Shown here one piece after another: positions 1 to 40,260 of a DNA stretch of 64,000 bases (the first letter of the stretch is position 1; every line of letters starts with the position of its first letter). The notes under the pieces were generated by a model. The model worked only from the letters and a program-made list of their open reading frames with translations, searched no databases and was not told the DNA's origin. A program made the position numbers and the translations under genes. This stretch comes from an uncultured Gemmatimonadales bacterium (GTDB lineage: Bacteria > Gemmatimonadota > Gemmatimonadetes > Gemmatimonadales > GWC2-71-9), in NCBI GenBank assembly GCA_963715665.1, contig OY970263.1, positions 253,514-317,513 on the forward strand, read 5' to 3'.

Positions 1-581
1 GCAATCTCCGCGATGAGGTGATCCCGTTGGGCCGGACTGAGGGAAGCCGTATCGATCCGTTCCAATGCCACATCTGCGGAGTCGATCGAACCCACCTCGA
101 TCTCCAGGCGGATCCGGGTCGTCTCTAGCGACGTCGGGAGCACGGCGCTCCTGGCGGTTAGCGCGCGCAATTGCGTCAATTCGCGAGCTGGTGCCAACCA
201 AATGTATGGATACGGTGTAATCGCTTCGAGCTGTTCCGCGCTCCAGGAATTACCACTGTCGCTGGCGAGCAGTTGTCGAAGTGCGAGCACGGCCGGTGCG
301 CGCCACAGGGCTTCGCGCCCGGTGCGGGACGCCTCGGGCGGTGAGATCGGAGCGGCCATGGCGAGTGCGACTTGTGCCGCGAGGCTATCCAGGGGCGCAT
401 CCCGGGAGTTCCGTTGAGAGTCCTCGATCAGCCGCGAGGCGATTGGCTGCAATGCGGCTCGTGCCGCGGTGTCACCGTGCAAGACCATGGTGATCAGCGC
501 GTCCAACGTGGTGTCGGCAGCCCCGTCCCGGGCTGTGCCGTGACCGACGCAGCCAGCTATCAAGCAAGCGACGACGAACAC
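1..581 (-). CDS. putative lipoprotein, N-terminal part only (runs off left edge)
   Basis: My own minus-strand translation: GTG at 581, then FVVACLIAGC (lipobox-like), with the frame open to position 1. It is absent from the ORF track because it has no stop in the window. It lies directly downstream of the Cys-rich peptide gene. Confidence 0.4.
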   Translation of the reverse strand, partial: MFVVACLIAGCVGHGTARDGAADTTLDALITMVLHGDTAARAALQPIASRLIEDSQRNSRDAPLDSLAAQVALAMAAPISPPEASRTGREALWRAPAVLALRQLLASDSGNSWSAEQLEAITPYPYIWLAPARELTQLRALTARSAVLPTSLETTRIRLEIEVGSIDSADVALERIDTASLSPAQRDHLIAEI

Positions 582-681
582 CTGACCTCCATCGAAGCTC
601 CGGCGCTGCCCACGGGCCGACGATACACGATGCGACGCTCGGCGACAAGAGTCGTTGATCGATGAGTCACCTCACGCCGCG

Positions 682-984
682 TCAGAACACCCAGCATTGA
701 ACGTCGAAGTCGCAACCTGGCCCGCCGGCGTTGCAAGACGCTTCGACGTCGTCGCGGCTGACACCACCGCAGCCATAGTCTTCGGCGAGAATGGCAACGC
801 AAGCGTCGTAAGGATCATCGGTTGCGCAGGCTTCCCACGCCACGGAGTCGTCTTCGTTCACGCATGCAGAGTAGAAGCCAAAATCGCAGGACGGCCAAGC
901 CGCGACGGCTCGAGAGGGGAGGGTCAGCCCACCGACCGCCACTACGATGGCGCTAAGCATGGTGACGACGGAGCGTTTCGACAT
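682..984 (-). CDS. secreted acidic Cys-rich small protein (precursor-like), family member 1
   Basis: 100-aa ORF with AAGGAGG 6 nt upstream of the ATG. N-terminal signal peptide (cleavage guessed after SRAVA). The 72-aa mature part has 8 Cys and many D/E. Confidence 0.6.
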   Translation of the reverse strand: MSKRSVVTMLSAIVVAVGGLTLPSRAVAAWPSCDFGFYSACVNEDDSVAWEACATDDPYDACVAILAEDYGCGGVSRDDVEASCNAGGPGCDFDVQCWVF

Positions 985-1085: not shown

Positions 1086-1769
1086 CTACGCTGATGTGGC
1101 GGACTTAATTGCGGCGATCACCAGTCGGTTCAATGACGCGGAATCGGGCGCCCCCGGAAGTCGGAGGCCGTTGATCAACAGTGTCGGTGTGCCGCGCCCA
1201 CCGAGCTTGCGCGCCGCCGCAGAGTCGATGTCGATGGCAATCACGGGCCCGGTTCGGGAGGCACATGTTGCGAAGGCTCCGGTATCAGCCACGCCCGCAT
1301 CTCGCGCGAAACTCATGAATGATTTGAGTCCCAGTGAATCCTGCTTCTGGTAGAGCGCGTCGTGATACGCTTCGAATTGCCCCTGCGCTCCAGCACATTC
1401 TGCCGCCCGGGCAGCCGGGTAGGCGAACCGATGATAGGAAAGTGGCCAGTTCCGGAAGACGACCTGAACGTCGTTTGGATACTTGTTCCGGATATACCGC
1501 AGCGGGCCGAGTTCGAACTTCCTGCACACCGGGCACTCGAAGTCCGCGAATTCGACGATTGTCACCGGGGCATTGGCCGGGCCCATCCGATGGCCGACCG
1601 CCGCATATTGGCGCCAGTCGGGGACCTGAACGGGCGTCGTTGGGCCCCGTGTAGCGTCGCCGGCCGGCGGCTTGTGAAGGGAGTCACGGACCCGCAGGGT
1701 GGTGACCACGACGGCGCAGGCAACCGCAACTACCATGAACGTCTGTTGGACGGCCTCACCAGGTTTCAT
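1086..1769 (-). CDS. membrane-anchored DsbA-family thiol:disulfide oxidoreductase
   Basis: C-terminal 227 aa of ORF 1086..2540. Internal ATG at 1769, followed by a TM helix (FMVVAVACAVVVTTL) and FADFECPVC (CxxC). Close paralogue of 40388..41065, which starts at the equivalent position. Confidence 0.75.
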   Translation of the reverse strand: MKPGEAVQQTFMVVAVACAVVVTTLRVRDSLHKPPAGDATRGPTTPVQVPDWRQYAAVGHRMGPANAPVTIVEFADFECPVCRKFELGPLRYIRNKYPNDVQVVFRNWPLSYHRFAYPAARAAECAGAQGQFEAYHDALYQKQDSLGLKSFMSFARDAGVADTGAFATCASRTGPVIAIDIDSAAARKLGGRGTPTLLINGLRLPGAPDSASLNRLVIAAIKSATSA

Positions 1770-2540
1770 CGTCTTCCCCCCGCGGCCGTTCTCCCGGATC
1801 TGGACGAGCCATCGTGCCCCCCCCCCCCGCCTCACCCGGGCCCGGATCCGCTCCTTGACCCGCCTGACAAGCCTGCGCTGTTCGGCCGGCGGACGGTCGG
1901 TGATGCCCAGCACATCGGCGTAGACCTTGGTCCTTCGCTCGCCCTCACCCATCAGCTCCCAGACCCTGTGCTCGGCGGCACTCCAGTTGGCTCGATGTTC
2001 CGCGCAGACGGTGGGAGTCCCGCCGGTGGTAATCACTTCCTGTAATACCTTCCCCGCCGGGCCGAGAAGTGCAACAACCCGGGTGTCAGCGTCCCGCCGA
2101 CGCCGGGCGTGTTCCGCGGCGTAACGCCACTCCCGGCGCTTGAGCCGGCCCTCGCGGCGCAGGCCGTTGAGCAGGTTCCGCCAGGCGGCCAGCCGCAGGT
2201 GGGCCATCACCATTCGGCCATCGGACGCGTTCGCGCCGGCCGGATGCTGGATATACGCCATCACGGCGTCAGTCGCGGCGTCCTGCGCGAGTGATGCGTC
2301 AATGCGCGGCCGATGGGCGGTCAGGTAGGTAACCAGCCACGGATGGACCATGGCCGCGAGTCGCTGGCCGACGTTGTCATCTCCGGCGAGCAGCTGCTGG
2401 TGCAGTTCGGCGATGCGGTCGAAGGCCGGCTCGGTCAACGGGCAACCGCGTCCTGTTGGTGTACGAGCAAGGTAATACGAGCGGAGCGTACGGATGTCAA
2501 GCGGAAGGTACACCAGGGGCACGATCCCCTTGGCAGCCAC
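1770..2540 (-). CDS. sigma-70/ECF-like regulator domain (in this assembly fused in frame to the DsbA-like ORF)
   Basis: N-terminal 257 aa of ORF 1086..2540. Region-2-like (DAATDAVMAYI...AAWRNLLNGLRRE) and region-4-like (VYADVLGITDRPPAEQRRLVRRVKERIRARV) patterns recognised by eye. There is no stop before the DsbA start, only a G12 tract. Confidence 0.45.
1817..1828. repeat. C12/G12 homopolymer tract at the sigma-like/DsbA junction
   Basis: Counted directly: 12 consecutive C on the + strand. Confidence 0.95.
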
Positions 2541-2627: not shown

Positions 2628-4247
2628 GTGAATTCCAAACGTCGACTGCTCGGGGTCCTTGCGTGCGGCATCGCACTCGCCGCCGTTCTTCCCGCCGCGC
2701 TGCCCGGCCAGAGCACGTCCGGCCCGCGCTTCGAGATCTCCTTTCCCGCCTCGGCCCACGCCGGCCCGATCACCGGGCGCGTGTACGTGGCGATCACGAA
2801 GGTGAACGACGCGCGCCGCACGCCCATTGACCAGACCGGCGAAGACGGCGTGCCGCTCTTCGGCGTCAACGTCGACGCCCTGAAACCGGGCCAGAGCGCC
2901 ACCATCGACGCGTCGACCTTCGGCTACCCGGCCCGCTCGCTCCGCGACATTCCCGCCGGCACCTACTGGGTGGAACCGTTCGTCAACGTCTACACCCGCT
3001 TTGCGCGGGCCGACGGGCACGTGGTGTGGCTCCACATGGACCAATGGGAAGGGCAGGACTGGAAGCGCTCGCCGGGGAACATCTGGGGCAAGCCGGTGGA
3101 GATCACCTTCGATCCGAAGTCGTCGACACCGGTCCGCCTCGTCGCCGACCAGGTGATTCCGCCGATCACCGAACCGGCCGATGACCAGTACGTCAAGCAC
3201 ATCAGGATCAAGAGCGAGATCCTGTCGAAGTGGTGGGGACAGCCGATCTGGCTCGGCGCCATCGTGCTGCTCCCCAAGGGCTACGACACGCACCCCGACG
3301 TGAAGTACCCGATTGTCTACGACGAAGGCCACTTCTCGCTGCGCCCGCCGGGCGGCGGCGCCAACCCGCAATGGCTCGCCGACAGCACGCCGCGGGTGAT
3401 CATGGTGTCGCTGCAACATCCGTCGCCCTACTACGACGATTCGTACGGCGTCAACTCGGCCAACAACGGCCCGTACGGCGACGCCATCATGCAGGAGCTG
3501 ATTCCCGAAGTCGAAAAGCGCTTCCGCGTCATCGGCCAGCCGTGGGCGCGATTGCTCACCGGTGGGTCGACCGGCGGCTGGATCGCCCTCTCGCAACAGG
3601 TGTTCTACCCCGACTTCTACGGCGGCACCTGGGCGCTCTGTCCCGACGCGGTGGACTTCCGGTACCACCAGATCGTCAACATCTACAGCGACAGCAACGC
3701 GTACTGGGTGGACCACGGCTGGATGAAGGTGGAGCGCCCCGACGTGCGTCGTCCCGACGGCAACATCACCACCATGATGAAGGACGAGAACTGGTACGAG
3801 CTGGCGGTGGGCGACAGCGGGCGGAGCGGCGGGCAATGGGACATCTGGCAGGCGACCTACGGTCCGGCGGGCGCCGGCGGCTACCCGGCACCGATCTGGA
3901 ACAAGCGCACCGGAGTGATCGACCACCAGGTGGCGGACTACTGGAAGCAGCACTACGACCTGCGGAACATCCTGCAGACCAACTGGTCGACCCTGGGGCC
4001 GAAGGTGGCCGACAAGATCAACGTCTACGTCGGCGCCATGGACACCTATTACCTGAACATGGGCGTCCACATGCTCGACGATTTCCTCACCTCGGCCACC
4101 GACCCGAAATGGACCGGCGAGATTGTCTTCCAGCCGATGGCGCCGCACTGCTGGGGGCCAAGAATGCCGGAACTGCTGCAGAAGATGGCGGCGCAGATGG
4201 TGGCCCATGCGCCGGCCGGGGCGGATGTGAAGGGGTGGAGGTACTGA
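2628..4247 (+). CDS. secreted alpha/beta-hydrolase, putative esterase family
   Basis: 539-aa ORF with AGGAGG upstream of the GTG, a signal peptide, and GGSTGG (GxSxG nucleophile elbow) in an esterase-like context. Confidence 0.75.
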   Translation: MNSKRRLLGVLACGIALAAVLPAALPGQSTSGPRFEISFPASAHAGPITGRVYVAITKVNDARRTPIDQTGEDGVPLFGVNVDALKPGQSATIDASTFGYPARSLRDIPAGTYWVEPFVNVYTRFARADGHVVWLHMDQWEGQDWKRSPGNIWGKPVEITFDPKSSTPVRLVADQVIPPITEPADDQYVKHIRIKSEILSKWWGQPIWLGAIVLLPKGYDTHPDVKYPIVYDEGHFSLRPPGGGANPQWLADSTPRVIMVSLQHPSPYYDDSYGVNSANNGPYGDAIMQELIPEVEKRFRVIGQPWARLLTGGSTGGWIALSQQVFYPDFYGGTWALCPDAVDFRYHQIVNIYSDSNAYWVDHGWMKVERPDVRRPDGNITTMMKDENWYELAVGDSGRSGGQWDIWQATYGPAGAGGYPAPIWNKRTGVIDHQVADYWKQHYDLRNILQTNWSTLGPKVADKINVYVGAMDTYYLNMGVHMLDDFLTSATDPKWTGEIVFQPMAPHCWGPRMPELLQKMAAQMVAHAPAGADVKGWRY

Positions 4248-4252
4248 GCGGC

Positions 4253-4483
4253 AGCCCGGAGCCCGGAGCCCGGAGCCCGGAGCGTGGGCACTGTCATTGT
4301 GAGCGGAGCGGTGGCGAAGCCACCGCGCAGTCGAACGCCTGCACTGAGCTTGTCGAAGGGACGACTTCGCAGCCACTCCGCGGCTGCTCCGCTCGGGATG
4401 ACATCGCTGCGTGGCCGGCCGATCCCTCGCTCCGCTCGGGATGACAGTGGCCGTCCCGCCCCCCGGGCCCCGGGCTCCGGGCT
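4253..4483. repeat. inverted pair of heptamer arrays flanking a REP/MITE-like segment
   Basis: (AGCCCGG)x4 at 4253-4280 and its complement (CCGGGCY)x3 at 4463-4483. The ~180 nt between them carries three copies of a ~20-nt motif (GAGCGGAGCG / CGCTCCGCTCGGGATGACA) in both orientations. Confidence 0.7.
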
Positions 4484-4552
4484 GCCTTTCTGGCATTGCG
4501 CTCCGGCACACGGGTTGCCTTCCTTTCACCGGATGCCGAATCGAGCCCCCTC

Positions 4553-5113
4553 ATGAAGGCTGATGATCCCATGGAAGACCCTGCGGGAAACCGCGACCAC
4601 GACCTCCCGATGACCGAGCCCCAGCCTCCCGAGGAGGAGTGGCGGCCGGAAGACAGCGTTCCGGCGGCGGAGGCGGCCAAGGCAGTCGCCGACGCCGAGG
4701 ATCGCTTTCTCCGCCTCGCCGCCGAATACGACAACTACCGGAAGCGGACCCACCGGGAAAAGACCGAGGCGTTCGACCGCGGCGCCGCCGCGATTGCGCT
4801 GCGGCTGCTCGACGTGCTCGACGACATCGACCGCCTGGCGGCAAGCCACCCCGAGCCCACCGACACCTTCCAGAGCGCCTTCCTGCTGATCCAGCGGAAA
4901 CTCTGGAAGGAGTTGCAGGCGGCGGGACTGGAACCGATCGACGCGGTAGGCAAGCCGTTCGACCCGACGCAGCACGAGGCGGTGTCGGTGGTCGCGCCGG
5001 AGGCGAAGGGGCAGGACCACACCGTCAAGGCCGTCTTCCAGACCGGCTACCGGTTCAAGGGGACGGTGCTGCGGCCGGCCCGGGTCCAGGTCTACTCCGA
5101 CCAGGGCAACTGA
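4553..5113 (+). CDS. grpE: nucleotide exchange factor GrpE
   Basis: AAEYDNYRKRTHRE...VGKPFDPTQHEAV...GYRFKGTVLRPARV are GrpE hallmarks. ATG at 4553 is preferred over the track start at 4496. Confidence 0.9.
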   Translation: MKADDPMEDPAGNRDHDLPMTEPQPPEEEWRPEDSVPAAEAAKAVADAEDRFLRLAAEYDNYRKRTHREKTEAFDRGAAAIALRLLDVLDDIDRLAASHPEPTDTFQSAFLLIQRKLWKELQAAGLEPIDAVGKPFDPTQHEAVSVVAPEAKGQDHTVKAVFQTGYRFKGTVLRPARVQVYSDQGN

Positions 5114-6202
<1,089 letters not shown>

Positions 6203-6263: not shown

Positions 6264-8429
6264 CTATCTCCGCCGCTCGATCAACACCCGATGGGTCCCC
6301 CGTTCCGGCTCGCCCGCGGCCGGGGTGCGCTGTTCGAAGCTGCCGTCGGGCCGCATCTCCCAGGCCTGGCGATTGTCGCGCAGCATGAGTTCCAGAACCC
6401 GCCGCACTTCCGCCCGATGCCGCGGGTCCTCGATCGGCACCGCCGCTTCGATGCGTCGCACCAGGTTGCGGGGCATCCAGTCGGCCGACGAGATCCAGAC
6501 CTCTTCCTCGCCGCCGTTGGTGAAGACAAACGCGCGGGAATGTTCCAGAAACCGTCCCAGGATCGAGATGACGCGGATGTTGTTGCTGACACCGGGGAGT
6601 CCGGGGCGGAGGCAGCAGATGCCGCGGATGATCAGGTCGATCGGCACCCCGGCGCGCGACGCCTGGTAGAGCGCCTCGATCACCTCCTGGTCAACCAGCG
6701 CGTTCATCTTGGCGAGAATGCCCGAGGGCCGTCCGGCGCGGGCATGTTCGGCCTCGCGCCCGATCCGCTCGAGCATCCGCTCCTTCATCCAGCGCGGCGC
6801 CACCAGCAGCTTGCGGTATCCGGCCGGCGCCGCGAACCCGGTGAGGACGTTGAAGAGGTCGCTCAGGTCCATGCCGAGTTCGGGGTCGGCGGTGATCAAC
6901 CCGAAGTCGGTGTAGAATCGCGCGGTCCGCGGGTTGTAGTTGCCGGTGCCGACATGCACGTAGCGCCGGATGGCGTCGCCCTCGCGGCGCACCACCAGCA
7001 GCACCTTGGCGTGGGTCTTGAGCCCCGCCACCCCGTAGCTCACGTGCACCCCGATGTCCTCGAAGCGCTTGGCCCAGCTGATGTTGTTCTCCTCGTCGAA
7101 GCGCGCCTGCAGTTCGATCAGCACCGCCACCTGCTTGCCCCGTTCGGCCGCCAGCGCCAGGAGTCGCGCGATCTCGCCGCCGGTGCGGTAGAGCGTGATC
7201 TTGATGGCGAGGACATCGGGATCTTCGGTGGCGACAGCAATGAGCCGCTCCACCGAGGTCTGGAACGAGTCGTAGGGGTGATGCAGCAGGATGTCGCCTT
7301 CGCGGATCGTGGCGAAGAGGTCGTGGTCTTCGGCGAGGCGCCGCGGGGTGGCCGGGATGAACGGCGGGTCGTGCAACGGCGGGAAGTCGAGGGCGGCGAT
7401 GGTCGCCAGGTCGCTGGCGTCGAGCGGCCCCGACACCTCGAAGACGTCGTCGTCGGTGAGCGGCAGCCCCTGGTCGGCGTCGGCGGCGTTGAACTCCTCG
7501 ATCAACAGCGCGCGGAGCGACGGCGGCATCGACTTCTGCACCTCGAGACGCACCACTTCGCCGAAGCGGCGGTTGCGAACCTCCTCCTGGATCAGCTCCA
7601 GGAGGTCTTCGGCTTCGTCGTTGCTTCCGCTGCCGAACTCGAGGTTGAGCTCGGTGTTGCGGGTGATGCGGAAGAGGTGCCAGCCGAGAATCTGCACGCC
7701 GGGGAACAGCGCCTCGACGTGCGCCCCGATCAGGTATTCCAGCGGGAAGAACTCGTTGGGCCGGGTCAGCGGCACCCACCGTGGCAGCAGCTTGGGCACC
7801 TTGACGCGGGCAAAGTGCGCGTGGCCGTCGGCGTCGGCGAGCGAGACGGCAAGCGACAGCGACAGGTTGGAGATGTGCGGGAACGGATGCGCCGGATCGA
7901 CCGCCAGCGGCGTCAGCACCGGAAAGACATTCGACCGGAAGTACCCGGTGAGGTGTTCCCGTTCCAGGGGCGAGAGGGCGTCGAAGCGGTCGTGCAGCCG
8001 GATGCCGTTGGCCGCCAGCGCGGGGACGACGTCGTTGATCAGGCAGCGCGAGTGCTGGTCGACGAGGCTCCGCACCGTGGTGCGGATGGCGCTCAGCTGC
8101 TGTGCCGGCGGCATCCGGTCGGCGGCGCGCTCGAGCACCCGCGCCGCAACCTGCTCGCGGAGCCCCGCCACCCGCACCTGGAAGAACTCGTCGAGGTTGC
8201 TCGAGAAGATGCCGAGAAACTTGACCCGTTCCAGCAGCGGGGTGCGGGCGTCGAGCGCCTCGTGCAGCACCCGCCGGTTGAACTCCAGCCACGCCAGCTC
8301 GCGATTGAGATAGAGCGACGCATCGCGCAGGTCGGGCGCCGGTTCGCTGGCCGCCGGCGCCGCCGACGCCGTGCAGGTCGACCGCCGACGCGGTGGGATT
8401 GCACGCTGCCGCCTCGATGACCCCGCCAC
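6264..8429 (-). CDS. ppk: polyphosphate kinase 1
   Basis: 721-aa ORF with LYLNRELAWLEFNRRVLHEA...FLGIFSSNLDEFF and full-length PPK1-like organisation. The start is uncertain (GTG 8429 overlaps the mnmA C-terminus). Confidence 0.9.
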   Translation of the reverse strand: MAGSSRRQRAIPPRRRSTCTASAAPAASEPAPDLRDASLYLNRELAWLEFNRRVLHEALDARTPLLERVKFLGIFSSNLDEFFQVRVAGLREQVAARVLERAADRMPPAQQLSAIRTTVRSLVDQHSRCLINDVVPALAANGIRLHDRFDALSPLEREHLTGYFRSNVFPVLTPLAVDPAHPFPHISNLSLSLAVSLADADGHAHFARVKVPKLLPRWVPLTRPNEFFPLEYLIGAHVEALFPGVQILGWHLFRITRNTELNLEFGSGSNDEAEDLLELIQEEVRNRRFGEVVRLEVQKSMPPSLRALLIEEFNAADADQGLPLTDDDVFEVSGPLDASDLATIAALDFPPLHDPPFIPATPRRLAEDHDLFATIREGDILLHHPYDSFQTSVERLIAVATEDPDVLAIKITLYRTGGEIARLLALAAERGKQVAVLIELQARFDEENNISWAKRFEDIGVHVSYGVAGLKTHAKVLLVVRREGDAIRRYVHVGTGNYNPRTARFYTDFGLITADPELGMDLSDLFNVLTGFAAPAGYRKLLVAPRWMKERMLERIGREAEHARAGRPSGILAKMNALVDQEVIEALYQASRAGVPIDLIIRGICCLRPGLPGVSNNIRVISILGRFLEHSRAFVFTNGGEEEVWISSADWMPRNLVRRIEAAVPIEDPRHRAEVRRVLELMLRDNRQAWEMRPDGSFEQRTPAAGEPERGTHRVLIERRR

Positions 8430-9479
8430 CGAGCAGCTGGTCGGCGGCGGAATAGAGCGCGCCGGACTGCCCCGGGGTAATGGCGCGAACCGGTGTGTCG
8501 AGCGCCAGGGCGACGCGGCCCGGTGCCACCTCGCGCACCCGGGCGGGAACGGCGGCGGCGCGGTAGCGCAACTGCACGAAGCAGCGGTCGCCCGCGGCGA
8601 GCGGCGCCGACAGCCAGTTGCATTCGCCCAGTGTCACCGCATCGCCGAACAGCTCCGATTCGTCGCCGACCACCACTTCTCGGCTCTCCGGACGGATCGC
8701 CACCACGTAGAGCGGCAGCGAGCGCCCGCCGGGCAGTCCGCGCCGCTGTCCCAGGGTGTAGCGGGCAAAGCCCTGGTGTTCGCCGACAACTTCGCCAGCG
8801 GTTGTCACCACGCGCCCCGGCGCGAGGGCCGGTGCGTCGGCGGGCAGGCGGCGCTCCAGCACGCCGACATAGTCATCGTCGGGGACGAAGCAGATCTCGA
8901 CGCTCTCGGGCTTGTCGGCGGTCTCCAGCGCCAGCGCCCGGGCGCGCCGCCGGGTCTCGCTCTTGGTGAGCGCTCCCACCGGCGTCCACATCCGCCGCAC
9001 CACCGCCCGGTCGATGCCCCACAGGAAGTAGCTCTGGTCCTTGTTGCGGTCGGCGCCGCGGAACAGCGCACCGTCGCGCGCCACGGCGTAATGTCCGGTG
9101 GCAATCCCGTCGCAGCCGAGCGCGTCGGCGTGCGCCAGCAGGTCGCGGAACTTGGTGAACGAGTTGCAGCGCACACAGGGAATCGGTGTGCGGCCGCGCG
9201 AGTATTCGTCGACGAAGTTGTCGATCACCCGGTCCGAGAAGCGGTCTTCGAAGTTGAGCACGTAGTGCGGAATCCGGAGCCGGTGCGCCACCGCGCGGGC
9301 GTCGGCGATCGAGTCGAGCGAGCAACAGGGCCGGTCGGGGACGTCTCGCCGTAGCAGAACAGCTTCATCGTGGCGCCGATGACCTCGTGGCCCTGCTCGA
9401 CGAGCAGCGCGGCGGCGAGCGACGAATCGACGCCGCCGCTCATCGCGACCAGAATCCGCGCGCGACCGTTCTCAGGCAC
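8413..9479 (-). pseudogene. mnmA: tRNA 2-thiouridine(34) synthase MnmA, frameshifted and without a recognisable stop
   Basis: The N-terminus ([12 protein letters not shown]...MKLFCYGE) is in one frame from GTG 9479. The rest ([26 protein letters not shown]...GQSGALY...LGGGVIE) is in another frame, with the shift near 9335-9345. After GGGVIE the frame stays open across ppk. Confidence 0.7.
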
Positions 9480-10641
9480 GGCCGAGGCTCCGGTGCAGGT
9501 CGCGCACCTTGCCGACGATGCCCGGAAAGAGCTCGACGACCCGGTCGATCTCGGCCGGCGTGGTGGCGTGGCCCAGCGAAAAGCGGATCGTGCTGGTCGA
9601 GACCGACGGGGCGACCCCCATCGCGACCAGCACATGTGACGGTTCCACCGAACCGGTGGAACAGGCCGAACCGCCGGAACAGGCGACACCGGCAAGGTCG
9701 AGGTGCATCAGCAGCGCCTCGGCCTCCGCGTCGGGCACGCCGAGCGAGAGGACGTGCGGAGCGCGAGGGGCGGTCGCACCGTGGACCACGGCGTCGGGAA
9801 TGGCGGCGACGAGGCGGCGCGCAAGGTCGTCGCGCAGCTGCCGCAGGCGGGTCATCTCGCCGTCGAGCTCGGCGCGGGCGAGCTTTGCGGCGCGTCCCAG
9901 TGCGACGGCACCGGCGACGTTCTCGGTGCCGGGGCGGATGCCGAACTGCTGGCCGCCGCCGTGGATGATGGCCTCGATGATGTGGCGGTTGCGCACGATG
10001 AGCGCGCCGATGCCCTTGGGCGCGCCGAGCTTGTGGCCGCTGATTGACAGCAGCTGCACGCCGGCGGCGTCGAGGTCGACCGGCACCTTGCCAAACGCCT
10101 GGACCGCGTCGCTGTGGAACGGCACGCCCGTCGCGGCGCACCGCGCGCCGATGTCGGCCACCGGCTGCAGCACGCCGACCTCGTTGTTGACCCACATCAC
10201 CGAAACGAGTGAGGGATGCCGCGCGAGGGCCGCGTCGAGTGCGTCGAGGTCGAGAATGCCGTCGGGGCGGACCGGAAGAATCGTCTCGTCGCCACCGAGT
10301 TCGACGACGGCGTGGGCGGCGGCGAGCACCGCCTTGTGCTCGATGGCGGTGGTGACGACGTGCATCGGCCGGCCCCGGTGCCGGGCGGCGAGTGCCGCGC
10401 CGATCACCGCCAGGTTGTCGGCCTCGGTCCCGCCCGAGGTGAAGATCACCTGGTTCGGTTCGGCGCCGACCGCTTCGGCCACCTCCCGCTTGGCCTGCTC
10501 GAACCCGGCGCGGGCCGCCCGGCCGAAGCGGTGCGATGACGAGGGGTTCCCCCACGAGGCGTTGAAGAAGGGGAGCATGGCCTCGAGGACGTCCCCCCGG
10601 ACCGGCGTCGTGGCGGCGTTGTCGAGATAGATCGGTTCCAT
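9472..10641 (-). CDS. cysteine desulfurase (NifS/IscS family)
   Basis: [10 protein letters not shown]..., [14 protein letters not shown] (PLP lysine) and a C-terminal CSSG-like motif. ATG at 10641. Its stop overlaps the mnmA start. Confidence 0.85.
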
Positions 10642-10800
10642 GGCGCTCAATCTAGCCGTCACTGGGCGGGGGAGCGACTCGACGGCGGCGATCACCGGTC
10701 AAGAATGGCACCTCGGCGCGCCGATGGAAAGTGCTGTGCCGCAAGGAGTTACAAGGTTGATACCGTGGTCGCACCGGTGCCACCTGGGTGGCATCGGTGA

Positions 10801-13689
10801 ATGGCCCGCTCGGGAGTCGCCGAGCATGGTACTTGCGCTCAGATTAGGGCAATGCCCGCATCGCAAGGAGATGGACCCGGACGCCTGGTCCGGCCCGGTT
10901 TGATCGCCGCCGGCACGGCAGCGAGCTACCTGCTTCTCGCGTCGGTGAGCTACGCCATCCCGCTGTTGGGGACCGAGATCGTGGCGGCGTGGCTCCCCGC
11001 TGGCTTGCTGCTCGCCTTCCTGCTCCTGCTCGACGGTTCCGAATGGGGTGCCGCGATGGCCGGGGCCGTCGTGGGCAACATGCTGGCCGACGTGCATCAC
11101 GGTTCGCGGCTCCTCGTTGCCCTGGCGGCCGGATTCGCCAACGTCGCCGAGTCATTCGTCGGGGCGCTGGTGCTGCGCCAGAAGCTGGGTCGGAAGATCT
11201 CCCTCGGGCGCCTCAGGGAACTCGGCTGGCTGTTGCTCGGCGTCGTGGTGGCAACAAACGCCGTGACGTCACTGCTTGGCGCGCTGGTGATGCACCTTGC
11301 CGGTAGCGCCGCCTTCAACCGGTCGTGGATCACGTGGTGGGTGGGAGACGGAGCCGGCATGCTGCTGATCACGCCGCTTCTGTTGACCTTTGTCGATCGG
11401 ACGAGGGGCGGCGAGCCGGTCGCCTGGCGAAGCGTCGTCCACGGGGCGGTCGCCGTTGTGGCGCTGATTGTCGTGGCGGGTTTCACCCTTGCCAATCCCC
11501 GCGGAAGCGGCCGCTTCATCGGCACCTCGCCGTACCTCGTCCTGCCGTTCGTGCTGTGGATCGCACTGGCCTTCGGTCCGGTTGGCGCGTCCGTCGCTGC
11601 GTTCGGGGTCGGGATGGCGGCGCTGGGCTACGGCGCAGCCGGGCATGGGCCCTTCGTGGCGCCGGGCGAGTCGGAACTCAAGGAAGTGCTGGGCCTCTAC
11701 AGCTTTCTTGCCCTGACGACGCTGACCGGGTTGGTGCCGGCGGCAATTCTCGAGGAGCGACGCCGCGCGACCGCGGCACTCCGGAGCAGCGAGGCCCGCT
11801 TCCGGGAACTCGCCGGTGCGATCGACGATGTCTTCTGGATTGCCGACCATGAGACGCTGGCGCCGCTCTACGTCTCGCCGGCGTTCGAACGGATCTGGGG
11901 CCGGCCCGGTATGGCGGTGACCGGCGGTCGCGACGGCCTCCTCGACACCGTCCACCCCGACGACGTCGCGGCAGTGGCAGCCACCTACGCCGCGAGCCGC
12001 GGCGGGAGGCCCTTCGAGCATACCTACCGCATCGTGCGGCCCGACGGTGAGGTCCGCTGGATTCACGGGCGCGGTTTTCCGGTGCGTGACGGCGCGGGAG
12101 CGGTGGTGCGGATTGCCGGTGTGGCCCGCGACATCACCACACAGCGCGAGGCGGAGACGGCGCTGGTGCGGACCGAAGAGCAGATGCGCTTTGCCCTCGA
12201 GGCGTCGGCGGTGGGGTTCTGGGAGGCTGACCTTGTCGGCGACACGGCCACGTGGTCGGCGACGTGTGAGGCGATGCACGGACTCGAACCGGGAACGTTC
12301 GGCGGCCGCCTCGGGGCGTTCATCGATCTGATCCACCCGGAAGACCGTGAGATCATCGCGCAGCGGGTGGCCGACTCGATTGCCGCGCACGCCGACGCCC
12401 AGATCGAATACCGGACTCGCTGGCCCGACGGCACCGTCCACTGGATCGTCTCGACCATTCACCCGGTGCACGACGCCGACGGGCGCCCGCTCAAGGCCAC
12501 CGGTGTCGCGATCGACGTCACCGAGCGCCGCGAGCTGGAGAATCAGCTACGGCAGGCCGGCAAGATGGAGGCCGTGGGCCAACTGGCTGGCGGCATTGCG
12601 CACGACTTCAACAACATCCTCACCGCGATCCTCGGCAACGCCGAGCTGCTGATCGAGGATGCCTCGGCGACGGTGGACCAGCGCAATTCCGCCGCCGAGA
12701 TCCGCACCGCCGCGGTGCGCGGCGCACGCCTCACCCGCCAGCTGCTGGCCTTCGGGCGGCGCCAGGTGCTGATGCCGCGACGCACCCGCGTCAGCGAGGT
12801 GGTCCGCGACATGCTGCCGATGCTGCGCCGCGTGCTCGGTGAGCACATCATCATCAGTGCGCCGGACACGACGGCCGATCCGGAGTTGGTGGCCGACGTC
12901 ACGCAGCTCGAGCAGATCATCCTCAACCTCGCCATCAACGCCGGCGATGCGATGCCGGATGGCGGCCAGCTCGACATCACGGTCGGTGAGGCGCTACTGC
13001 CGCCCGACGCCGGGCCGCGCGAGATGCCGCTCGACGGTGGCCGGTATGTCGTGATCGACGTGACCGACAGCGGCACCGGCATTGGCCGCGAAGTGCTGGC
13101 CCACATCTTCGAACCGTTCTTCACCACCAAGCCCGCCGGTCACGGCACCGGCCTCGGCCTGGCCACCGTCCACGGGATCGTGACGCAGATGCACGGCGCC
13201 GTCGAAGTGTCGAGCCGCCGGGGCGAAGGGACGCGGTTCCGCATCTACCTCCCCGCCGCCGACGAGACGGGTGAACGGGAAACGGAGAGCGAACGCCAGC
13301 AGGTCACGGTGGGCGGCAACGAGACGATCCTGCTGGTCGAGGACGAACCGGCGGTGCGGGCCTACCTCACCAAGACCCTCGAGCGGCACGGTTATCGGGT
13401 GATCGCGGCTGCGGACGCTGCCGCGGCGCAGGACGCCTTCCGGCGCGCGGCGGTGCCGATCGACGTGCTGATCACCGACCTGCGGATGCCGGGCATCAGC
13501 GGCGTCGATCTGGCCGCCGAGCTGCGGAAGACCCAGCCGGTGCTGCGGGTGATCTTCATGTCCGGGTACAGCGAATTGGCCGCCGACATCGCAAGCAGCG
13601 AGCAGCCGTTTCTCGCCAAGCCGTTCAGTGGGGCGGATCTTGCCGCGATGGTCCGCACCGTGCTCGATGCCGGACGGATCGTGAACTGA
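10801..13689 (+). CDS. hybrid sensor histidine kinase/response regulator (MASE1-PAS-PAS-HisKA-HATPase-REC)
   Basis: Multi-TM N-terminus, two PAS-like blocks (WIHGRGFPVRD, WIVSTIHPVHD), an H-box (GGIAHDFNNIL), G-boxes, and a REC domain (LLVEDEP...DLRMPG...K). The alternative start is ATG 10852. Confidence 0.85.
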   Translation: MARSGVAEHGTCAQIRAMPASQGDGPGRLVRPGLIAAGTAASYLLLASVSYAIPLLGTEIVAAWLPAGLLLAFLLLLDGSEWGAAMAGAVVGNMLADVHHGSRLLVALAAGFANVAESFVGALVLRQKLGRKISLGRLRELGWLLLGVVVATNAVTSLLGALVMHLAGSAAFNRSWITWWVGDGAGMLLITPLLLTFVDRTRGGEPVAWRSVVHGAVAVVALIVVAGFTLANPRGSGRFIGTSPYLVLPFVLWIALAFGPVGASVAAFGVGMAALGYGAAGHGPFVAPGESELKEVLGLYSFLALTTLTGLVPAAILEERRRATAALRSSEARFRELAGAIDDVFWIADHETLAPLYVSPAFERIWGRPGMAVTGGRDGLLDTVHPDDVAAVAATYAASRGGRPFEHTYRIVRPDGEVRWIHGRGFPVRDGAGAVVRIAGVARDITTQREAETALVRTEEQMRFALEASAVGFWEADLVGDTATWSATCEAMHGLEPGTFGGRLGAFIDLIHPEDREIIAQRVADSIAAHADAQIEYRTRWPDGTVHWIVSTIHPVHDADGRPLKATGVAIDVTERRELENQLRQAGKMEAVGQLAGGIAHDFNNILTAILGNAELLIEDASATVDQRNSAAEIRTAAVRGARLTRQLLAFGRRQVLMPRRTRVSEVVRDMLPMLRRVLGEHIIISAPDTTADPELVADVTQLEQIILNLAINAGDAMPDGGQLDITVGEALLPPDAGPREMPLDGGRYVVIDVTDSGTGIGREVLAHIFEPFFTTKPAGHGTGLGLATVHGIVTQMHGAVEVSSRRGEGTRFRIYLPAADETGERETESERQQVTVGGNETILLVEDEPAVRAYLTKTLERHGYRVIAAADAAAAQDAFRRAAVPIDVLITDLRMPGISGVDLAAELRKTQPVLRVIFMSGYSELAADIASSEQPFLAKPFSGADLAAMVRTVLDAGRIVN

Positions 13690-29284: not shown

Positions 29285-30817
29285 TTGCTCTCCCGCATCC
29301 ACTCCGCCACGGTGCTCGGCGTCGAGGCGCTCGCCGTCGACGTCGAGATCGACATTGCCAACGGCCTGCCGTCGTTCACCACGGTCGGGTTGCCGGTGGG
29401 CGCGGTCAAGGAAGGGCGGGAGCGTGTCGCGGCGGCGCTCCAGAACGCCGGCTTCCAGCTGCCGCTGCGGCGGATCACCGTGAACCTGGCGCCGGCCGAC
29501 GTGCAGAAGCGCGGCAGCGCGTTCGACCTGGCCGTCGCCGTGGGGATCCTCGCCGCGAGCGGCCAGATCTCCGACGACCGGCTGCATCGTTCGTTGCTGC
29601 TGGGCGAGCTGGGACTGGAAGGCGACCTGCGGCCGGTCCGCGGCGCGCTGCCGATTGCGCTGGCGGCGCGGGGGTTCGGGTGCGACGAGCTGATCCTGCC
29701 GCAGGCCAACGTGGCCGAAGCGGCGGTGGTGGGCGGGGTGTCGGTGCGCGGGGCGGCGAGCCTCACGGCGGTATGCCGGCACCTCACCGGTGAGGCGCCG
29801 CTGGCGGCGGTGCGCACCGACGCGGCGGCACTGATGGCGGAATTGCCGCAGAGCGATGTGGATTTTGCCGAGGTGAAGGCGCAGGGGGCGGCAAAACGGG
29901 CGATGGAGGTGGCGGCGGCGGGGGCGCACAACCTGTTGCTGATCGGTCCGCCCGGGGCGGGCAAGACGATGCTGGCGCGGCGGCTGCCGACGATCCTGCC
30001 GTCGATGTCGCTGGCCGAAGCGCTCGACGTGACGCGGATTCACAGTGTGGCGGGGTTGTTGCCGGCGGGGCAGGCGCTGGTGACGCGGCGTCCGTTCCGG
30101 GCGCCGCACCACACCGTCTCGTACGCCGGGCTGATCGGTGGTGGGGCGATTCCGCGGCCCGGTGAGGTGTCGCTGGCGCATCACGGGGTGCTCTTTCTCG
30201 ACGAAGTGGCCGAGCTGTCGAGCAACGTGCTGGAAGTACTGCGGCAACCGCTGGAGGACGGGCAGGTCACCATCTCGCGGGCGGCGATGACGCTGGCGTA
30301 TCCGGCGCGGTTCCTGCTGGTGGCGGCGATGAATCCCTGTCCCTGCGGCTACCTGGGTGACGCGACGCGGCAGTGCAGCTGTTCGCCGATGGCGGTGCAG
30401 CGGTACCGCGCGAAGATCTCCGGGCCGTTGCTCGACCGGGTGGACATCCACCTGAGTGTCCCGCCGGTGGCCTACGACGATCTCACCGCGCGCAAGGCAG
30501 CGGAATCGAGTACCGTGGTGCGCCAGCGGGTGGAAGCGGCGCGGGCGCGGCAGCTGGAGCGGTTCCGGGAGGTGCGCGGGGTGTATGCCAATGCCCACAT
30601 GGGACCGCGGGAGCTGGCGAAGTTCGTGCGGACCGACGCGGCGACGGATGCGGTACTGAAGCAGGCAATCGTCAAGCTGGGGCTTTCGGCGCGGGCGTAT
30701 CACCGCGTGCTCAAACTGGCGCGGACACTGGCGGATCTGGAGGGGGTGGAGGACGTGGGGCCGCAGCATGTGGGGGAGGCGATCCAGTATCGGGTGCTGG
30801 ACCGGGGGGAGGGGTGA
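29285..30817 (+). CDS. comM: YifB/ComM family Mg-chelatase-like ATPase (intact)
   Basis: 510 aa with GGAGG before the TTG start. Lon-like N-terminus, AAA+ core (LLIGPPGAGKTM, VLFLDE), the NPCPCGY motif and a C-terminal helical domain. Confidence 0.9.
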   Translation: MLSRIHSATVLGVEALAVDVEIDIANGLPSFTTVGLPVGAVKEGRERVAAALQNAGFQLPLRRITVNLAPADVQKRGSAFDLAVAVGILAASGQISDDRLHRSLLLGELGLEGDLRPVRGALPIALAARGFGCDELILPQANVAEAAVVGGVSVRGAASLTAVCRHLTGEAPLAAVRTDAAALMAELPQSDVDFAEVKAQGAAKRAMEVAAAGAHNLLLIGPPGAGKTMLARRLPTILPSMSLAEALDVTRIHSVAGLLPAGQALVTRRPFRAPHHTVSYAGLIGGGAIPRPGEVSLAHHGVLFLDEVAELSSNVLEVLRQPLEDGQVTISRAAMTLAYPARFLLVAAMNPCPCGYLGDATRQCSCSPMAVQRYRAKISGPLLDRVDIHLSVPPVAYDDLTARKAAESSTVVRQRVEAARARQLERFREVRGVYANAHMGPRELAKFVRTDAATDAVLKQAIVKLGLSARAYHRVLKLARTLADLEGVEDVGPQHVGEAIQYRVLDRGEG

Positions 30818-30916
30818 GGGCGGGGGCGGCACAGGGGCCACCGATCAACGCTTGACTGTCGGGCAACCTGGCTGCGAGGCCGGGTTGACACGGGTTGCAC
30901 CAGCCGGTACCGTTGA

Positions 30917-30946
30917 ACGCCACGCCACGCCACGCCACGCCACGCC
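30917..30946. repeat. pentanucleotide tandem repeat (ACGCC)x6
   Basis: Counted directly. The paralogous site at 47229-47273 has 9 units. Confidence 0.9.
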
Positions 30947-30957
30947 ATGGTGGTGTG

Positions 30958-31674
30958 ATGCGCTCGCCGGAGGTTGGTGGCCCTAAGTCGAGGCGTCGAC
31001 CGATGACTGTGTGCTGCCTGCTAACCGGCGAACCGACGGCGATTGACGCGGGGCCGCCTGCACCGCGCCCCCTGGGCACAGTGTTCGTGGTTCCGGGCGG
31101 CGATGATGATCTGGCGCGAGTCGCCGAGTCCGTCGACCAGTGGCGCGCCAGTCCGTGGTGCCCGACGGTGCTGGTCGGCGCCGATAACGTTACGCCTCGG
31201 ACGCTGGACCTGCTGGTTCCCTCTGCAATGCATGTAACCCCGCTTTGCGGTGAGGCCTTGCACCCGGTCGCCGAAATCAGGAACGGGATCGGTCAGCGCC
31301 GGATTCCCGACGCCACCGATGTTGCCGCCTACATCGCGTTCAGGACATCGCTCGGCCTCGCCAACCTGTACTGCGACATACGCGATTCGGCGGGCGACGC
31401 CGACTTTCTGCGCCGATCGCTCCGGAGGTACGGAGCATGGCTGCCCCACGATTGGCGGGCACTCGGGAGTTGCCTGGAGCTGGTCGCACGCGCGGTCGCG
31501 GCCGGGCATTCGGAGGCCATGGCGGCGGAGCTGGCGGGCGTGGACGTCAAGACGGTCTCGCGGTGGTGCCGTCGGTGCTTCGGGCTGACCTGGCGGGAGC
31601 TCGTGGGAATGGACGCCTGGGAGGCGGCGCTGGAGGCCGCTCTGCGGACGGGTGGATATGTAACAGACCGCTGA
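30958..31674 (+). CDS. island-borne HTH regulator (AraC-like C-terminal HTH), copy 1
   Basis: Near-identical paralogue of 47291..48007. The C-terminus (AAELAGVDVKTVSRWCRRCFGLTWRELV) is HTH-like. The start is uncertain: track TTG 30895 runs through the repeat, and ATG 30958 or 31003 are alternatives. Confidence 0.6.
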   Translation: MRSPEVGGPKSRRRPMTVCCLLTGEPTAIDAGPPAPRPLGTVFVVPGGDDDLARVAESVDQWRASPWCPTVLVGADNVTPRTLDLLVPSAMHVTPLCGEALHPVAEIRNGIGQRRIPDATDVAAYIAFRTSLGLANLYCDIRDSAGDADFLRRSLRRYGAWLPHDWRALGSCLELVARAVAAGHSEAMAAELAGVDVKTVSRWCRRCFGLTWRELVGMDAWEAALEAALRTGGYVTDR

Positions 31675-31872
31675 TCGGGGCGAAATTGGGCGAAAAACAG
31701 CGAAAGGCACTGCTTTCTGGTATGGCGGTTTCCGGGACGAAGGTGAGCATTGATGGGCGCGAGAACCGCCGAATCCCATCGCGTCGTCGAGACGTGGGAC
31801 TCAACGGTTCGGGTCTCTGAAACGGTTTGGAGCGGTTCACCGCCTCACGTTATAGGAACTGAGGGTAACACG

Positions 31873-32847
31873 ATGCCTATGCTCTTTCGGATGCCCCGAT
31901 GGATGCTTCTTGTATGCGTTCTCTCAGCAGTGGGCTGTCGGTCGGATACGATGGCTACAACGAGCGGCTATCAGGGCCAAACGGTAAGTGGAGCTAGTGG
32001 ACTATCGAAGAAGCAAATGATGACCGCGATCTTGACGCGGAGTCGTATCGCACGCGGAACGTTGCGACCGACTCAATCTGTGATTCGCACCTATGACAGG
32101 AACGGTGAGCCTCTGAGCGAGATAGTGGATTCGTCGGGCACATGGATTCGTCGAACACCATCGATCCCTGACTCGTTGATGCGCAAACCACTGTCCTCAT
32201 TTCTAAATGGGGAAACGCCCGCACCCGGTCCGAAGATGGCGTCGCTCATCGTGGGCGCCCCCGTTGGCACCTACTCGTTCAGTACGACACTCGGCGGTGA
32301 GCCGCTCAGCGTCACTGATTCGACGTGGACCGACACGCCGAGTGCGTGGGTGAATCCGACCCGAGACGCCTCGAATCCGTATGCGCCATTTGAGGGCGAT
32401 TTCTTCGCGGTCGACTCAAGCAATATCTACAACGTCCTTGCGGTTGGCAGCAATAGCGTCGACCTAGTCATGGTGTCGCCTGACAGTTCCGACGATGCTG
32501 GCGACTTCGTGGAGATTGATCCAGATGACAGCGCGATCGTGCAAGCTCAATCCGAGTTCACAACTGACACCGCCGAATCGGGCTATCTGCGCACCGGTGG
32601 AAGTTCTGCGGGGGCCTCTGGCACGGAGTTGGCGTCGCCAGGCGTGGTTGGTTTCCTGACACTCTGCCAGGGTGCCAGGATTACACTAGGGTTCGCAGCG
32701 GCGAAGACCGTGTTCTTTGGTGTGTTGGCGATCGCGTCGCTTGGAGATCAACCGGAATTCGCGGTTTGGGCTGGAAAGCAGGCGGTGCAGTCGCTGGCGC
32801 TAGCTGGAGCATCCTACTACACTGCGCACAAGAACGGGTGCTTATAG
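31873..32847 (+). CDS. hypothetical lipoprotein with hydrophobic C-terminal region
   Basis: GAGGG before ATG 31873 and a lipobox (LSAVGC). The last ~70 aa form two hydrophobic/Gly-Ala-rich segments. Lower-GC region. Confidence 0.6.
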   Translation: MPMLFRMPRWMLLVCVLSAVGCRSDTMATTSGYQGQTVSGASGLSKKQMMTAILTRSRIARGTLRPTQSVIRTYDRNGEPLSEIVDSSGTWIRRTPSIPDSLMRKPLSSFLNGETPAPGPKMASLIVGAPVGTYSFSTTLGGEPLSVTDSTWTDTPSAWVNPTRDASNPYAPFEGDFFAVDSSNIYNVLAVGSNSVDLVMVSPDSSDDAGDFVEIDPDDSAIVQAQSEFTTDTAESGYLRTGGSSAGASGTELASPGVVGFLTLCQGARITLGFAAAKTVFFGVLAIASLGDQPEFAVWAGKQAVQSLALAGASYYTAHKNGCL

Positions 32848-36418: not shown

Positions 36419-36904
36419 AATCCCTGTCCCTGCGGCTACCTGGGTGACGCGACGCGGCAGTGCAGCTGTTCGCCGATGGCGGTGCAGCGGTACCGCGCGA
36501 AGATCTCCGGGCCGCTGCTCGACCGGGTGGATATCCACCTGAGTGTCCCGCCGGTGGCCTACGACGATCTCACCGCGCGCAAGGCAGCGGAATCGAGTAC
36601 CGTGGTGCGGCAGCGGGTGGAAGCGGCGCGGGCGCGGCAGCTGGAGCGGTTCCGGGAAGTGCGCGGGGTGTATGCCAATGCGCACATGGGTCCCAGGGAG
36701 CTGGCCAGGTTCGTGCGGACCGATGCCGCGACCGATGCGGTGCTCAAGCAGGCGATCGTCAAGCTGGGGCTGTCGGCGCGGGCGTATCACCGCGTGCTCA
36801 AACTGGCGCGGACACTGGCGGATCTGGAGGGGGTGGCCGAGGTGGGGCCGCAGCATGTGGGGGAGGCGATCCAGTACCGGGTGCTGGATCGGGGGGAGGG
36901 GTGA
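36419..36904 (+). pseudogene. comM: comM 3' fragment (copy 1)
   Basis: Matches comM 30332-30817 from NPCPCGYLGDATRQCSC to the stop, with only a few amino-acid substitutions. It lacks the 5' two thirds. Confidence 0.9.
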
Positions 36905-36952
36905 GGGCCGGGGGCGACATAGAGGCCACCGATCAACGCTTGACTGTCGGGC

Positions 36953-38693: not shown

Positions 38694-38778
38694 TGAACCA
38701 TCCTAGAGGATCGGTGTGAGCTGACCCCGGTTTGGAGGACACACCATTTAGGTGTTTTCCTTCATCTGGGAGGTCAGG

Positions 38779-40247: not shown

Positions 40248-40260
40248 ACTTCGATAGGGT

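Follow-up and report, generated by a model that had tools for sequence, protein, structure and literature searches.

The window analysed here, a 64,000-nucleotide (nt) stretch of an uncultured Gemmatimonadales genome (assembly GCA_963715665.1, contig OY970263.1, positions 253,514 to 317,513), holds three open reading frames (ORFs) for Cys-rich peptides, pep1, pep2 and pep3, and we find that these are genuine genes for small secreted proteins of the Sec type. Peptide genes of this kind are statistically linked to genes for DsbA-like oxidoreductases, and the two are found together in a cassette made up of a helix-turn-helix (HTH) regulator, a DsbA, one or two Cys-rich peptides, at least one six-bladed NHL/TolB-like propeller and sometimes a large secreted protein, a cassette type that appears to be confined to Gemmatimonadales. 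The cassettes are accessory, partly located on mobile islands, and highly diverged. Sequence comparison identifies pep1 and pep2 as homologues belonging to one family with eight cysteines, to which pep3, encoded in a comparable cassette whose DsbA has diverged, could at most belong as a remote relation. The pep1/pep2 family and its cassette are new and unannotated, and seem to work like a known kind of system: we propose, as the reading we consider probable, that they specify acidic miniproteins that are exported by Sec and folded by the cassette's own DsbA, with a bacteriocin-like or recognition effector as the favoured role.

The gene for pep1 lies on the minus strand at 682-984 (stop codon 682-684) and encodes a precursor of 100 amino acids (aa) that is also a gene call in NCBI/ENA (P0001). 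A canonical AAGGAGG ribosome-binding site stands 6 nt 5' of its ATG, and a 28-aa Sec-type signal peptide (901-984, ending ...SRAVA / AWPSC) precedes a mature part of 72 aa with eight cysteines (685-900). On the plus strand, pep3 (48280-48561) encodes 93 aa, or 92 aa from the second of two tandem ATGs, which are preceded by AAGGAGG at 3 and 6 nt; the NCBI/ENA call (P0002) is the 92-aa protein. The pep3 precursor has a signal peptide of ~33 aa and a mature part of ~60 aa with six cysteines. The mature part of pep2, also on the plus strand, occupies 40023-40247 including the stop codon and comprises 74 aa with eight cysteines. A first-pass annotation made from the DNA letters had described these peptides in some detail, and much of that description stands: with its cleavage sites we reproduce mature lengths of 72, 74 and 60 aa and Cys counts of 8, 8 and 6, and we recover the motifs SCDF, GCDP and TCDA, the 7, 7 and 8 residues that intervene between first and second Cys, the three tail sequences as quoted, and the acidic, Lys/Arg-poor composition (Asp+Glu to Lys+Arg, 15/1 in pep1, 13/0 in pep2 and 11/3 in pep3). 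Promoter and terminator scans around the three genes yielded nothing useful.

The window contains exactly three DsbA-like genes and exactly three Cys-rich ORFs with signal peptides, one beside each, at distances of ~100 nt (pep1), ~140 nt (pep2) and ~1.6 kb (pep3). DsbA1 (1086-1769, minus strand; PF13462, E = 4.6e-23) is a membrane-anchored Thioredoxin_4 protein with a CPVC motif and a GTPT cis-Pro loop, and has its own start signal, GGGAGGA-N6-ATG, with the ATG at 1769. DsbA2 (40388-41065, plus strand) is likewise membrane-anchored and DsbA-like, with CPVC, and DsbA3 (50143-50886, plus strand; PF13462, E = 5.4e-16) has a CSHC active site. All three exceed the PF13462 gathering score and possess the conserved T-P and an N-terminal hydrophobic anchor, and they are predicted to act as oxidases. 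Divergence among the enzymes parallels that among the peptides: DsbA1 and DsbA2 are 56% identical and have related peptides, and DsbA3, 27% identical to DsbA1, has an unrelated one.

The same pairing recurs in other genomes. A DsbA1/2 profile run against one genome per prokaryotic species found its closest matches in Gemmatimonadota metagenome-assembled genomes (MAGs; 41-53% identity), and at nine of the ten closest Gemmatimonadota DsbA loci an ORF with a signal peptide and 6-10 Cys lies within 0-675 nt; at the tenth, the sequence ends at the DsbA gene. Over 193 kb of such loci, 17 of the 19 ORFs that passed our filter fall within 1.7 kb of DsbA (binomial P = 1.6e-6). The collected peptides are mostly unrelated in sequence (median pairwise z = 0.1), each is acidic on balance and poor in Lys and Arg, and 18 of 19 have an even number of cysteines. 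A scan of viral contigs with DsbA gave no match. The idea that the DsbA is dedicated to the peptides is thus plausible, since three such genes adjoin the three peptides and the pairing recurs, and the prevalence of even counts supports the accompanying proposal of fully disulfide-bonded folds. The high Cys and Asp/Glu content and the scarcity of Lys and Arg would also suit a metallothionein-like protein that binds metal in the periplasm, or a redox buffer, with free thiols and acidic side chains as the working groups. We regard that function as very improbable, because an oxidase-type DsbA neighbour (CPVC/CSHC, cis-Pro loop) implies disulfides over free thiols, odd Cys counts are rare, the peptides lack metal motifs rich in His/Met or CxxC, and the cassettes contain no metal-transport genes.

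Direct sequence searches returned almost nothing. With pep1 and pep3 as queries, a word-indexed search of 5.8 billion clustered proteins found the query alone, a full HMMER scan of 1.84 billion representative proteins with a pep1+pep2 profile found the query and two repeat-junk proteins only, and metagenome scans with DsbA3 and with an alignment of pep1 orthologues did not confirm any relative. Pfam, NCBIfam, PADLOC and PDB sequence searches with the three peptides matched nothing meaningful, which, together with the protein-set searches, agrees with the earlier failure to place them by eye in any known bacteriocin or toxin family. Position was more informative. On three contigs that carry a homologue of u708, the large secreted protein encoded directly downstream of pep1, an ORF of 90-97 aa lies directly upstream of that homologue (L082:5410-5703, L086:3575-3847 and L088:3623-3901); in L082 and L086 it stands between the DsbA gene and the u708 homologue, and in L088 no DsbA gene was called within 4 kb upstream. 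Each of these three ORFs has an AxA cleavage site followed by x-[WL]-P-x-C, all eight of their cysteines align with those of pep1, and their identity to pep1 is 36-38%. Lack of homologues, raised earlier as a reason to doubt the genes, therefore holds for direct sequence searches and not for synteny, which reveals orthologues with all eight cysteines kept that the search of 1.84 billion representative proteins missed. For pep3, neither the word-indexed search nor the pep1-family model detected a homologue.

These results bear on whether the peptides might be chance, non-functional ORFs in G+C-rich DNA, which we find barely credible. Such a reading could draw on the empty direct searches and on a third-codon-position G+C of 0.61-0.69, an unremarkable value that does not separate the peptide ORFs from overlapping frames. 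Against it stand strong Shine-Dalgarno sites and signal peptides, positional orthologues that keep the cysteines, the cleavage site and the motifs despite 36-44% identity, the recurrent association with DsbA, and the even Cys counts. For pep1 and pep2 the chance-ORF reading is already effectively refuted, and we consider all three genes real on the strength of their Shine-Dalgarno sites, Sec-type signal peptides with AxA, NCBI/ENA gene calls and positional orthologues.

How the three peptides relate to one another is a separate question. In composition-preserving shuffles the mature parts of pep1 and pep2 score well above expectation (z = 4.0, observed score reached by 14 of 5000 shuffles; BLASTP E = 1e-5), whereas pep3 does not score above shuffles with either pep1 (z = 0.7, 1142 of 5000) or pep2 (z = 1.0, 839 of 5000), so that the similarity beyond shuffled sequences on which a common family depends is present for the first pair and absent for pep3. 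A hidden Markov model (HMM) of pep1 and its three orthologues matches a peptide at L003:1475-1831 (E = 8e-6) and pep2 (E = 1.5e-3) and does not match pep3; pep2 and the L003 peptide score z = 4.5 against each other. The shared framework of pep1 and pep2 reads [WL]P-x-C-x2-G-x-Y-x2-C-[VIL] ... D-P-x3-C ... C-[YW]-[VIW], and an AxA site, ordered cysteines and these motifs occur together in pep1, pep2, the orthologues of L082, L086 and L088, and L003:1475-1831; an adjacent DsbA gene accompanies pep1, pep2 and the peptides of L082, L086 and L003a. With six cysteines and no HMM match, pep3 falls outside this eight-Cys family.

A single sequence family of all three peptides, as first proposed, is thus not demonstrable, since pep3 does no better than shuffles and is missed by the HMM, and two of the features said to unite them have dissolved: the Asp after the first Cys is replaced by G, T and T in the three pep1 orthologues, and the Arg near the cleavage site is kept in one of the three. 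We lean slightly towards the reading that the common features are coincidental and that pep3 is an unrelated protein with the generic composition of small secreted disulfide proteins. In addition to the shuffles, the HMM and the poor conservation of 'CD' and Arg, this accords with the different loop lengths of pep3 and with a DsbA3 that is distant from DsbA1 and has another active site. Speaking for kinship are the analogous gene context of pep3 (HTH gene, peptide, propeller, DsbA), the location of both pep2 and pep3 in comM islands, and an N-terminal C-x8-C-V and an aromatic residue after the last Cys that fit the family. Four features (Asp directly following the first Cys, a spacing of 7-8 residues to the second, a hydrophobic residue after the second Cys, and an aromatic residue after the last) co-occur in shuffled pep3 at p = 2e-4, a value that is suggestive at most, as the features were picked after looking at the sequences. 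The six-Cys peptides of L005 and L013 have CT[TG]C in common with pep3, and with weak scores (p ~0.04; not significant) we claim no relatedness among them.

In one respect pep2 differs from what was first described, for it had been taken as an intact peptide, and its signal peptide is in fact interrupted and lacks a start codon on its own DNA: the pep2 frame has a stop codon at 39933-39935 and no start before the Leu (TTG 40023) of LPGCD. The interruption is an IS3-family insertion sequence (38717-39965, plus strand), bounded by 26-nt inverted repeats at 38717-38742 and 39940-39965, with orfA (38752-39072) and orfB (39069-39935) in a programmed-frameshift layout. The element is present in one copy within the window, and its flanking triplets, GTG and GTT, do not form a perfect target duplication. 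Upstream of it, ten codons from GTG 38687 (38687-38716, plus strand; MALNHPRGSV) probably form the 5' end of pep2, and their frame continues at 39966 whether or not a 3-bp target duplication is assumed. The remnant downstream (39966-40247, plus strand) would encode the rest of the signal peptide at 39966-40022 (VALSAGVALLGARNKPAWA) and the mature part at 40023-40244, and joining MALNHPRGSV to it would restore a signal peptide of 29 aa. As the signal peptide is cut by the IS3 element, pep2 has probably been inactivated by this insertion and is a pseudogene.

We propose the following course for the intact members of these cassettes. Following established DsbA biology, the precursors would cross the inner membrane via Sec, signal peptidase I would cleave after AxA, and the membrane-anchored DsbA paralogue of the cassette would introduce three to four disulfides in the periplasm, giving the 60-74-aa miniprotein a compact fold. 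Such a folded, anionic, Lys/Arg-poor miniprotein is predicted to resist proteases. More speculatively, it would be released and act on other cells as a bacteriocin-like toxin or as a recognition or signalling ligand, and the co-encoded propeller would serve as its binding or immunity partner. A bolder extension, which we hold only tentatively and judge unlikely, is that the cassettes constitute a mobile, fast-diversifying system in which disulfide-knotted anionic miniproteins, the products of a DsbA specific to the cassette, serve as diffusible weapons or kin-recognition ligands and six-bladed propellers as their cognate receptors or immunity proteins. If true, diderm soil bacteria would possess a bacteriocin-like system of a new, Sec/DsbA-dependent class, in which one genomic logic unites many peptide families unrelated in sequence.

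The most serious competitor to release from the cell is that the miniproteins are periplasmic partners of the propeller and/or the large secreted protein, acting as a small subunit, an inhibitor, a chaperone-like cap or a ligand. Peptide genes usually adjoin a propeller gene (cassettes 2 and 3 of the window, L002, L003 twice, L004, L006 and L010), signal peptides or lipoboxes are present on all cassette proteins, and scans of these proteins recognised no function in export across the outer membrane or in immunity. We nonetheless consider this arrangement doubtful. The pep1 cassette, be it that of the window, of L082 or of L088, has no propeller between DsbA, peptide and u708, the numbers of peptides (one or two) and propellers (one to three) vary from cassette to cassette, and the peptides diverge faster than other cassette components, which is unusual for an obligate subunit. 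An amine-dehydrogenase type of partnership in particular finds no MauG-like, haem or cofactor-maturation gene and no Pfam light-chain match.

Several observations weigh against the effector role that we favour. The divergence of the peptides (36-44% identity) is just moderately above that of u708 (46-70%), and small disulfide scaffolds drift fast without positive selection. An AlphaFold2 (AF2) model of pep1 from a two-sequence alignment is unreliable, with a predicted local distance difference test (pLDDT) score of 50, and was left out of the fold search, so that no fold backs any activity. Among the cassette proteins, searches of Pfam, NCBIfam and PADLOC recognised DsbA, propellers and HTH proteins, the others matching no family, and brought up neither an outer-membrane exporter nor a C39 peptidase/ABC transporter nor an evident immunity gene, so that the peptides may stay in the periplasm and the subunit-like alternative remains alive. 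Homologues of u708 also occur with no DsbA or peptide neighbour, and the family has two invariant cysteines, C403 and C410, such that the peptides are not the sole possible client of the DsbA. Finally, pep3 is no more than a possible homologue of the other two. A DsbA dedicated to the propeller was considered and rejected: an alignment of 12 propellers contains no conserved Cys, and the DsbA is therefore not present for their sake. A precursor of a ribosomally synthesised and post-translationally modified peptide was likewise rejected, as there is no radical SAM protein, LanM/LanB/LanC or YcaO among the cassette proteins and the signal peptides are classical Sec ones.

Parts of this scheme have parallels in known systems. 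The heat-stable enterotoxins (STs) of E. coli pass through Sec, then DsbA, and are then released through the outer membrane by TolC (PMC6356903). STa and STb resemble our peptides in deriving from a small Sec precursor, in their Cys-rich mature form with two or three DsbA-made disulfides, in their diderm host and in their association with mobile DNA. Yet there is no sequence similarity to STa or STb and no Pfam or NCBIfam match for the three peptides; STs are shorter (18-48 aa), depend on the housekeeping DsbA and not on a cassette-encoded paralogue, and come from loci with no propeller or large-protein partner genes, and outer-membrane export would be putative for the Gemmatimonadales peptides, for which a Sec-type signal peptide and a neighbouring DsbA gene are seen.

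A second parallel is with bacteriocin loci that come with a thiol-disulfide oxidoreductase gene, as do those of pediocin, with PedC (PMC4919988), and of the thermophilins (PMC10059821). There, as here, the gene for a small secreted Cys-containing peptide adjoins one for an oxidoreductase, a stem-loop follows the structural gene, and the locus belongs to the accessory genome, varies and is often mobile. Sublancin, with BdbB, comes from another bacteriocin locus with a dedicated oxidoreductase, and the enzyme of the thermophilin loci is named BlpG. The Gram-positive peptides differ in having double-glycine leaders, ABC/C39 exporters and immunity genes, none of which we found in our cassettes; they have one or two disulfides and are usually cationic, whereas the peptides described here would have three to five and are strongly anionic, and our producers are diderm Gemmatimonadales. 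The propeller may represent an unrecognised immunity function.

Two further systems combine a thioredoxin-fold protein with a specific partner. In methylamine dehydrogenase, the disulfide-rich small subunit MauA sits on the propeller subunit MauB and needs MauD of the MauD/MauE system, so that a Cys-rich small secreted protein, a propeller and a thioredoxin-fold protein are co-encoded as in our cassettes. Here, in contrast, there are no MauG or haem genes and no amine-dehydrogenase light-chain match, the propellers are six-bladed NHL/TolB-like and not seven-bladed, the peptides are poorly conserved, and the pep1-type cassette has no propeller among DsbA, peptide and large protein; we rejected a MauA-like subunit on the absence of a light-chain Pfam match and a haem protein and on the match of the propellers to six-bladed families. 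The locus of DsbL/DsbI and their client includes a beta-propeller protein. In uropathogenic E. coli, DsbL/DsbI is a DsbA paralogue system dedicated to its client, arylsulfate sulfotransferase (Grimshaw et al. 2008, cited in PMC6067686). The likeness lies in a DsbA paralogue encoded beside a specific periplasmic client; the difference is that our propellers have no conserved Cys and the obvious client is a miniprotein. Scans of the cassettes found no DsbB/DsbI- or VKOR-like partner. Membership in each of these systems fails, on sequence family, exporter and immunity genes, MauG, or conserved propeller Cys. Literature searches returned nothing relevant on this cassette, on Gemmatimonadota Cys-rich peptides or on NVEALA.

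The genomic setting of the cassettes points to exchange or diversification at fixed chromosomal sites, namely comM islands and an esterase-cinA slot. The window has a full-length comM (Mg-chelatase-like) gene at 29285-30817, whose 3' 530 bp (30332-30864) are repeated at 36419-36952 (95%) and 46644-47176 (94%), with a 50-nt piece of the gene repeated again at 44747-44796. We read these 3' repeats as the boundaries of tandem islands that inserted at the 3' end of comM and carry pep2 and pep3; no integrase was identified in the comM islands. In L010 a comM 3' fragment is likewise followed by DsbA, two peptides and a propeller. The G+C content of the island region is ~0.59-0.65, compared with ~0.68-0.72 in the rest of the window. 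Genes for two near-identical HTH proteins (30895-31674, 259 aa, at the head of island A, and 47207-48007, plus strand, 266 aa, at the head of island C) each stand directly after a comM 3' repeat, and the DNA repeat that holds the second is 94% identical to the region of the first. In island A a 365-aa acidic lipoprotein (31750-32847) takes the place that pep3 has in island C.

The pep1 cassette instead has an esterase gene on one side and cinA on the other. When the window is compared with L082, the flanks are closely similar (93% protein identity for the esterase, 92% DNA identity on the cinA side), whereas identity within the cassette falls to 65-70% for u708, 58% for DsbA, 57% for the regulator-like protein and 33-38% for the peptide, the least conserved part. 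This disparity suggests either replacement by a divergent allele or much faster evolution of the pep1 cassette. In L082 the slot also holds a second cassette (8420-11317), which the window genome lacks. Its genes are a regulator-like one of 326 aa, whose 5' DNA is 67% identical to window 1818-2504, a 382-aa propeller and a 229-aa DsbA, and no Cys-rich peptide gene was called in it.

Several cassette components have features of their own. In the window, the 250-aa regulator-like part (1770-2540, minus strand), which has no Pfam match and whose counterpart in L082 is a gene of its own (220 aa, 57% identity), is joined to DsbA1 in a single uninterrupted ORF (1086-2540, minus strand); in L082 regulator (3897-4559) and DsbA (4556-5407) are separate, overlapping genes. 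The single ORF could reflect a fusion, a frameshift or a missing stop codon. Other cassettes have GerE/LuxR-type or other HTH genes in the regulator position. A nearly perfect RNA hairpin with a stem of ~20 bp follows pep2 (40259-40308, plus strand), 12 nt past the stop codon and 5' of DsbA2, and comparable hairpins follow pep1 (~640-675, minus strand) and pep3 (~48583-48630). All three are G+C-rich, lack a U-tract and begin 7-25 nt from the stop codon, and folding z-scores for the whole regions are not significant. They could act as attenuators or mRNA stabilisers that set the ratio of peptide to downstream expression.

The propellers match TolB_like, DUF5128 and NHL models. That of cassette 2 (41161-42336, plus strand, 391 aa) is of the secreted six-bladed type and is related to the propeller prop3 (E = 4e-5) and to those of L002 and L003, and that of cassette 3 (48946-50124, plus strand; TolB_like, PF15869, E = 4.2e-9) is a lipoprotein with the lipobox LIGC, whose true start is probably internal to the ORF. 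One 19-kb part of the window holds five paralogous six-bladed NHL/TolB-like propellers (34569-35699, 41161-42336, 48946-50124, ~50955-52172 and 52363-53430), each with a signal peptide or lipobox and a common GRxGxGPGEF motif, as if the family had expanded in connection with the islands.

Pfam, NCBIfam, PADLOC and PDB searches with the large secreted proteins u614 and u708 gave nothing meaningful. The 5' part of the 708-aa u708 occupies 1-581 (minus strand), and the rest lies beyond the window start (L001:724-2850). Of its 31 homologues none has a name beyond 'hypothetical protein', and the organism label that three of them carry is in each case a Gemmatimonadales MAG. An AF2 model (pLDDT 84) has an alpha-repeat N-terminus and C-terminal beta-sandwich domains; with this model, Foldseek against the PDB found generic Ig/FnIII-type matches only (RbmA, transglutaminase C-terminal barrels; TM ~0.15), from which no function can be drawn. 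The family has a conserved block, FW-x-RRD...G-x-R-L-x-E-x-F-x-RW...DDRG...RHGDP, which resembles the GWxTD domain; Pfam and NCBIfam report neither GWxTD nor another family. In cassette 2, u614 (42341-44185, plus strand) is 28% identical to L003:3142-4965 and shares with u708 a C-terminal beta-sandwich region only (hhalign to the u708 family: probability 79%, E = 1.5e-5). In L003 two cassettes stand complete and in tandem, each running DsbA, peptide, six-bladed propeller, large protein, one of the large proteins being u614-like and the other u708-like. In L087, a u708 homologue has neither a DsbA nor a peptide gene beside it, and two genes downstream of it stands a gene with a type VI secretion system Tle1-like lipase domain (6879-7934), a placement that is possibly incidental.

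Gemmatimonadota abound in soil, yet hardly any have been cultured and next to nothing is known of their extracellular biology. The genomic rule that emerges here, by which a paralogous gene for a membrane-anchored DsbA serves as a signpost to a hypervariable Cys-rich secreted miniprotein encoded beside it, picks up small proteins that sequence searches miss. Should the peptides prove antimicrobial or signalling, they would provide new stable disulfide-rich scaffolds and an example of Sec/DsbA-dependent peptide effectors outside Proteobacteria. In Myxococcota, a different conserved Cys-rich protein (L026 4070-4429, L029 4355-4723, L034 5080-5445, L040 5065-5427 and L055 5079-5444) with the sequence CLVHGDCHxSERCLV...CVDPCEGDLQCP... 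and an N-terminal hydrophobic segment is encoded ~1 kb upstream of a DsbA homologue, and may represent an independent DsbA-client pairing. Beside the DsbA of a Gemmatimonadaceae MAG (L009 1-480), a peptide with a mature part of ~36 aa has the pattern C-x6-C-x5-CC-x3-C-x8-C, a spacing typical of inhibitor-cystine-knot peptides.

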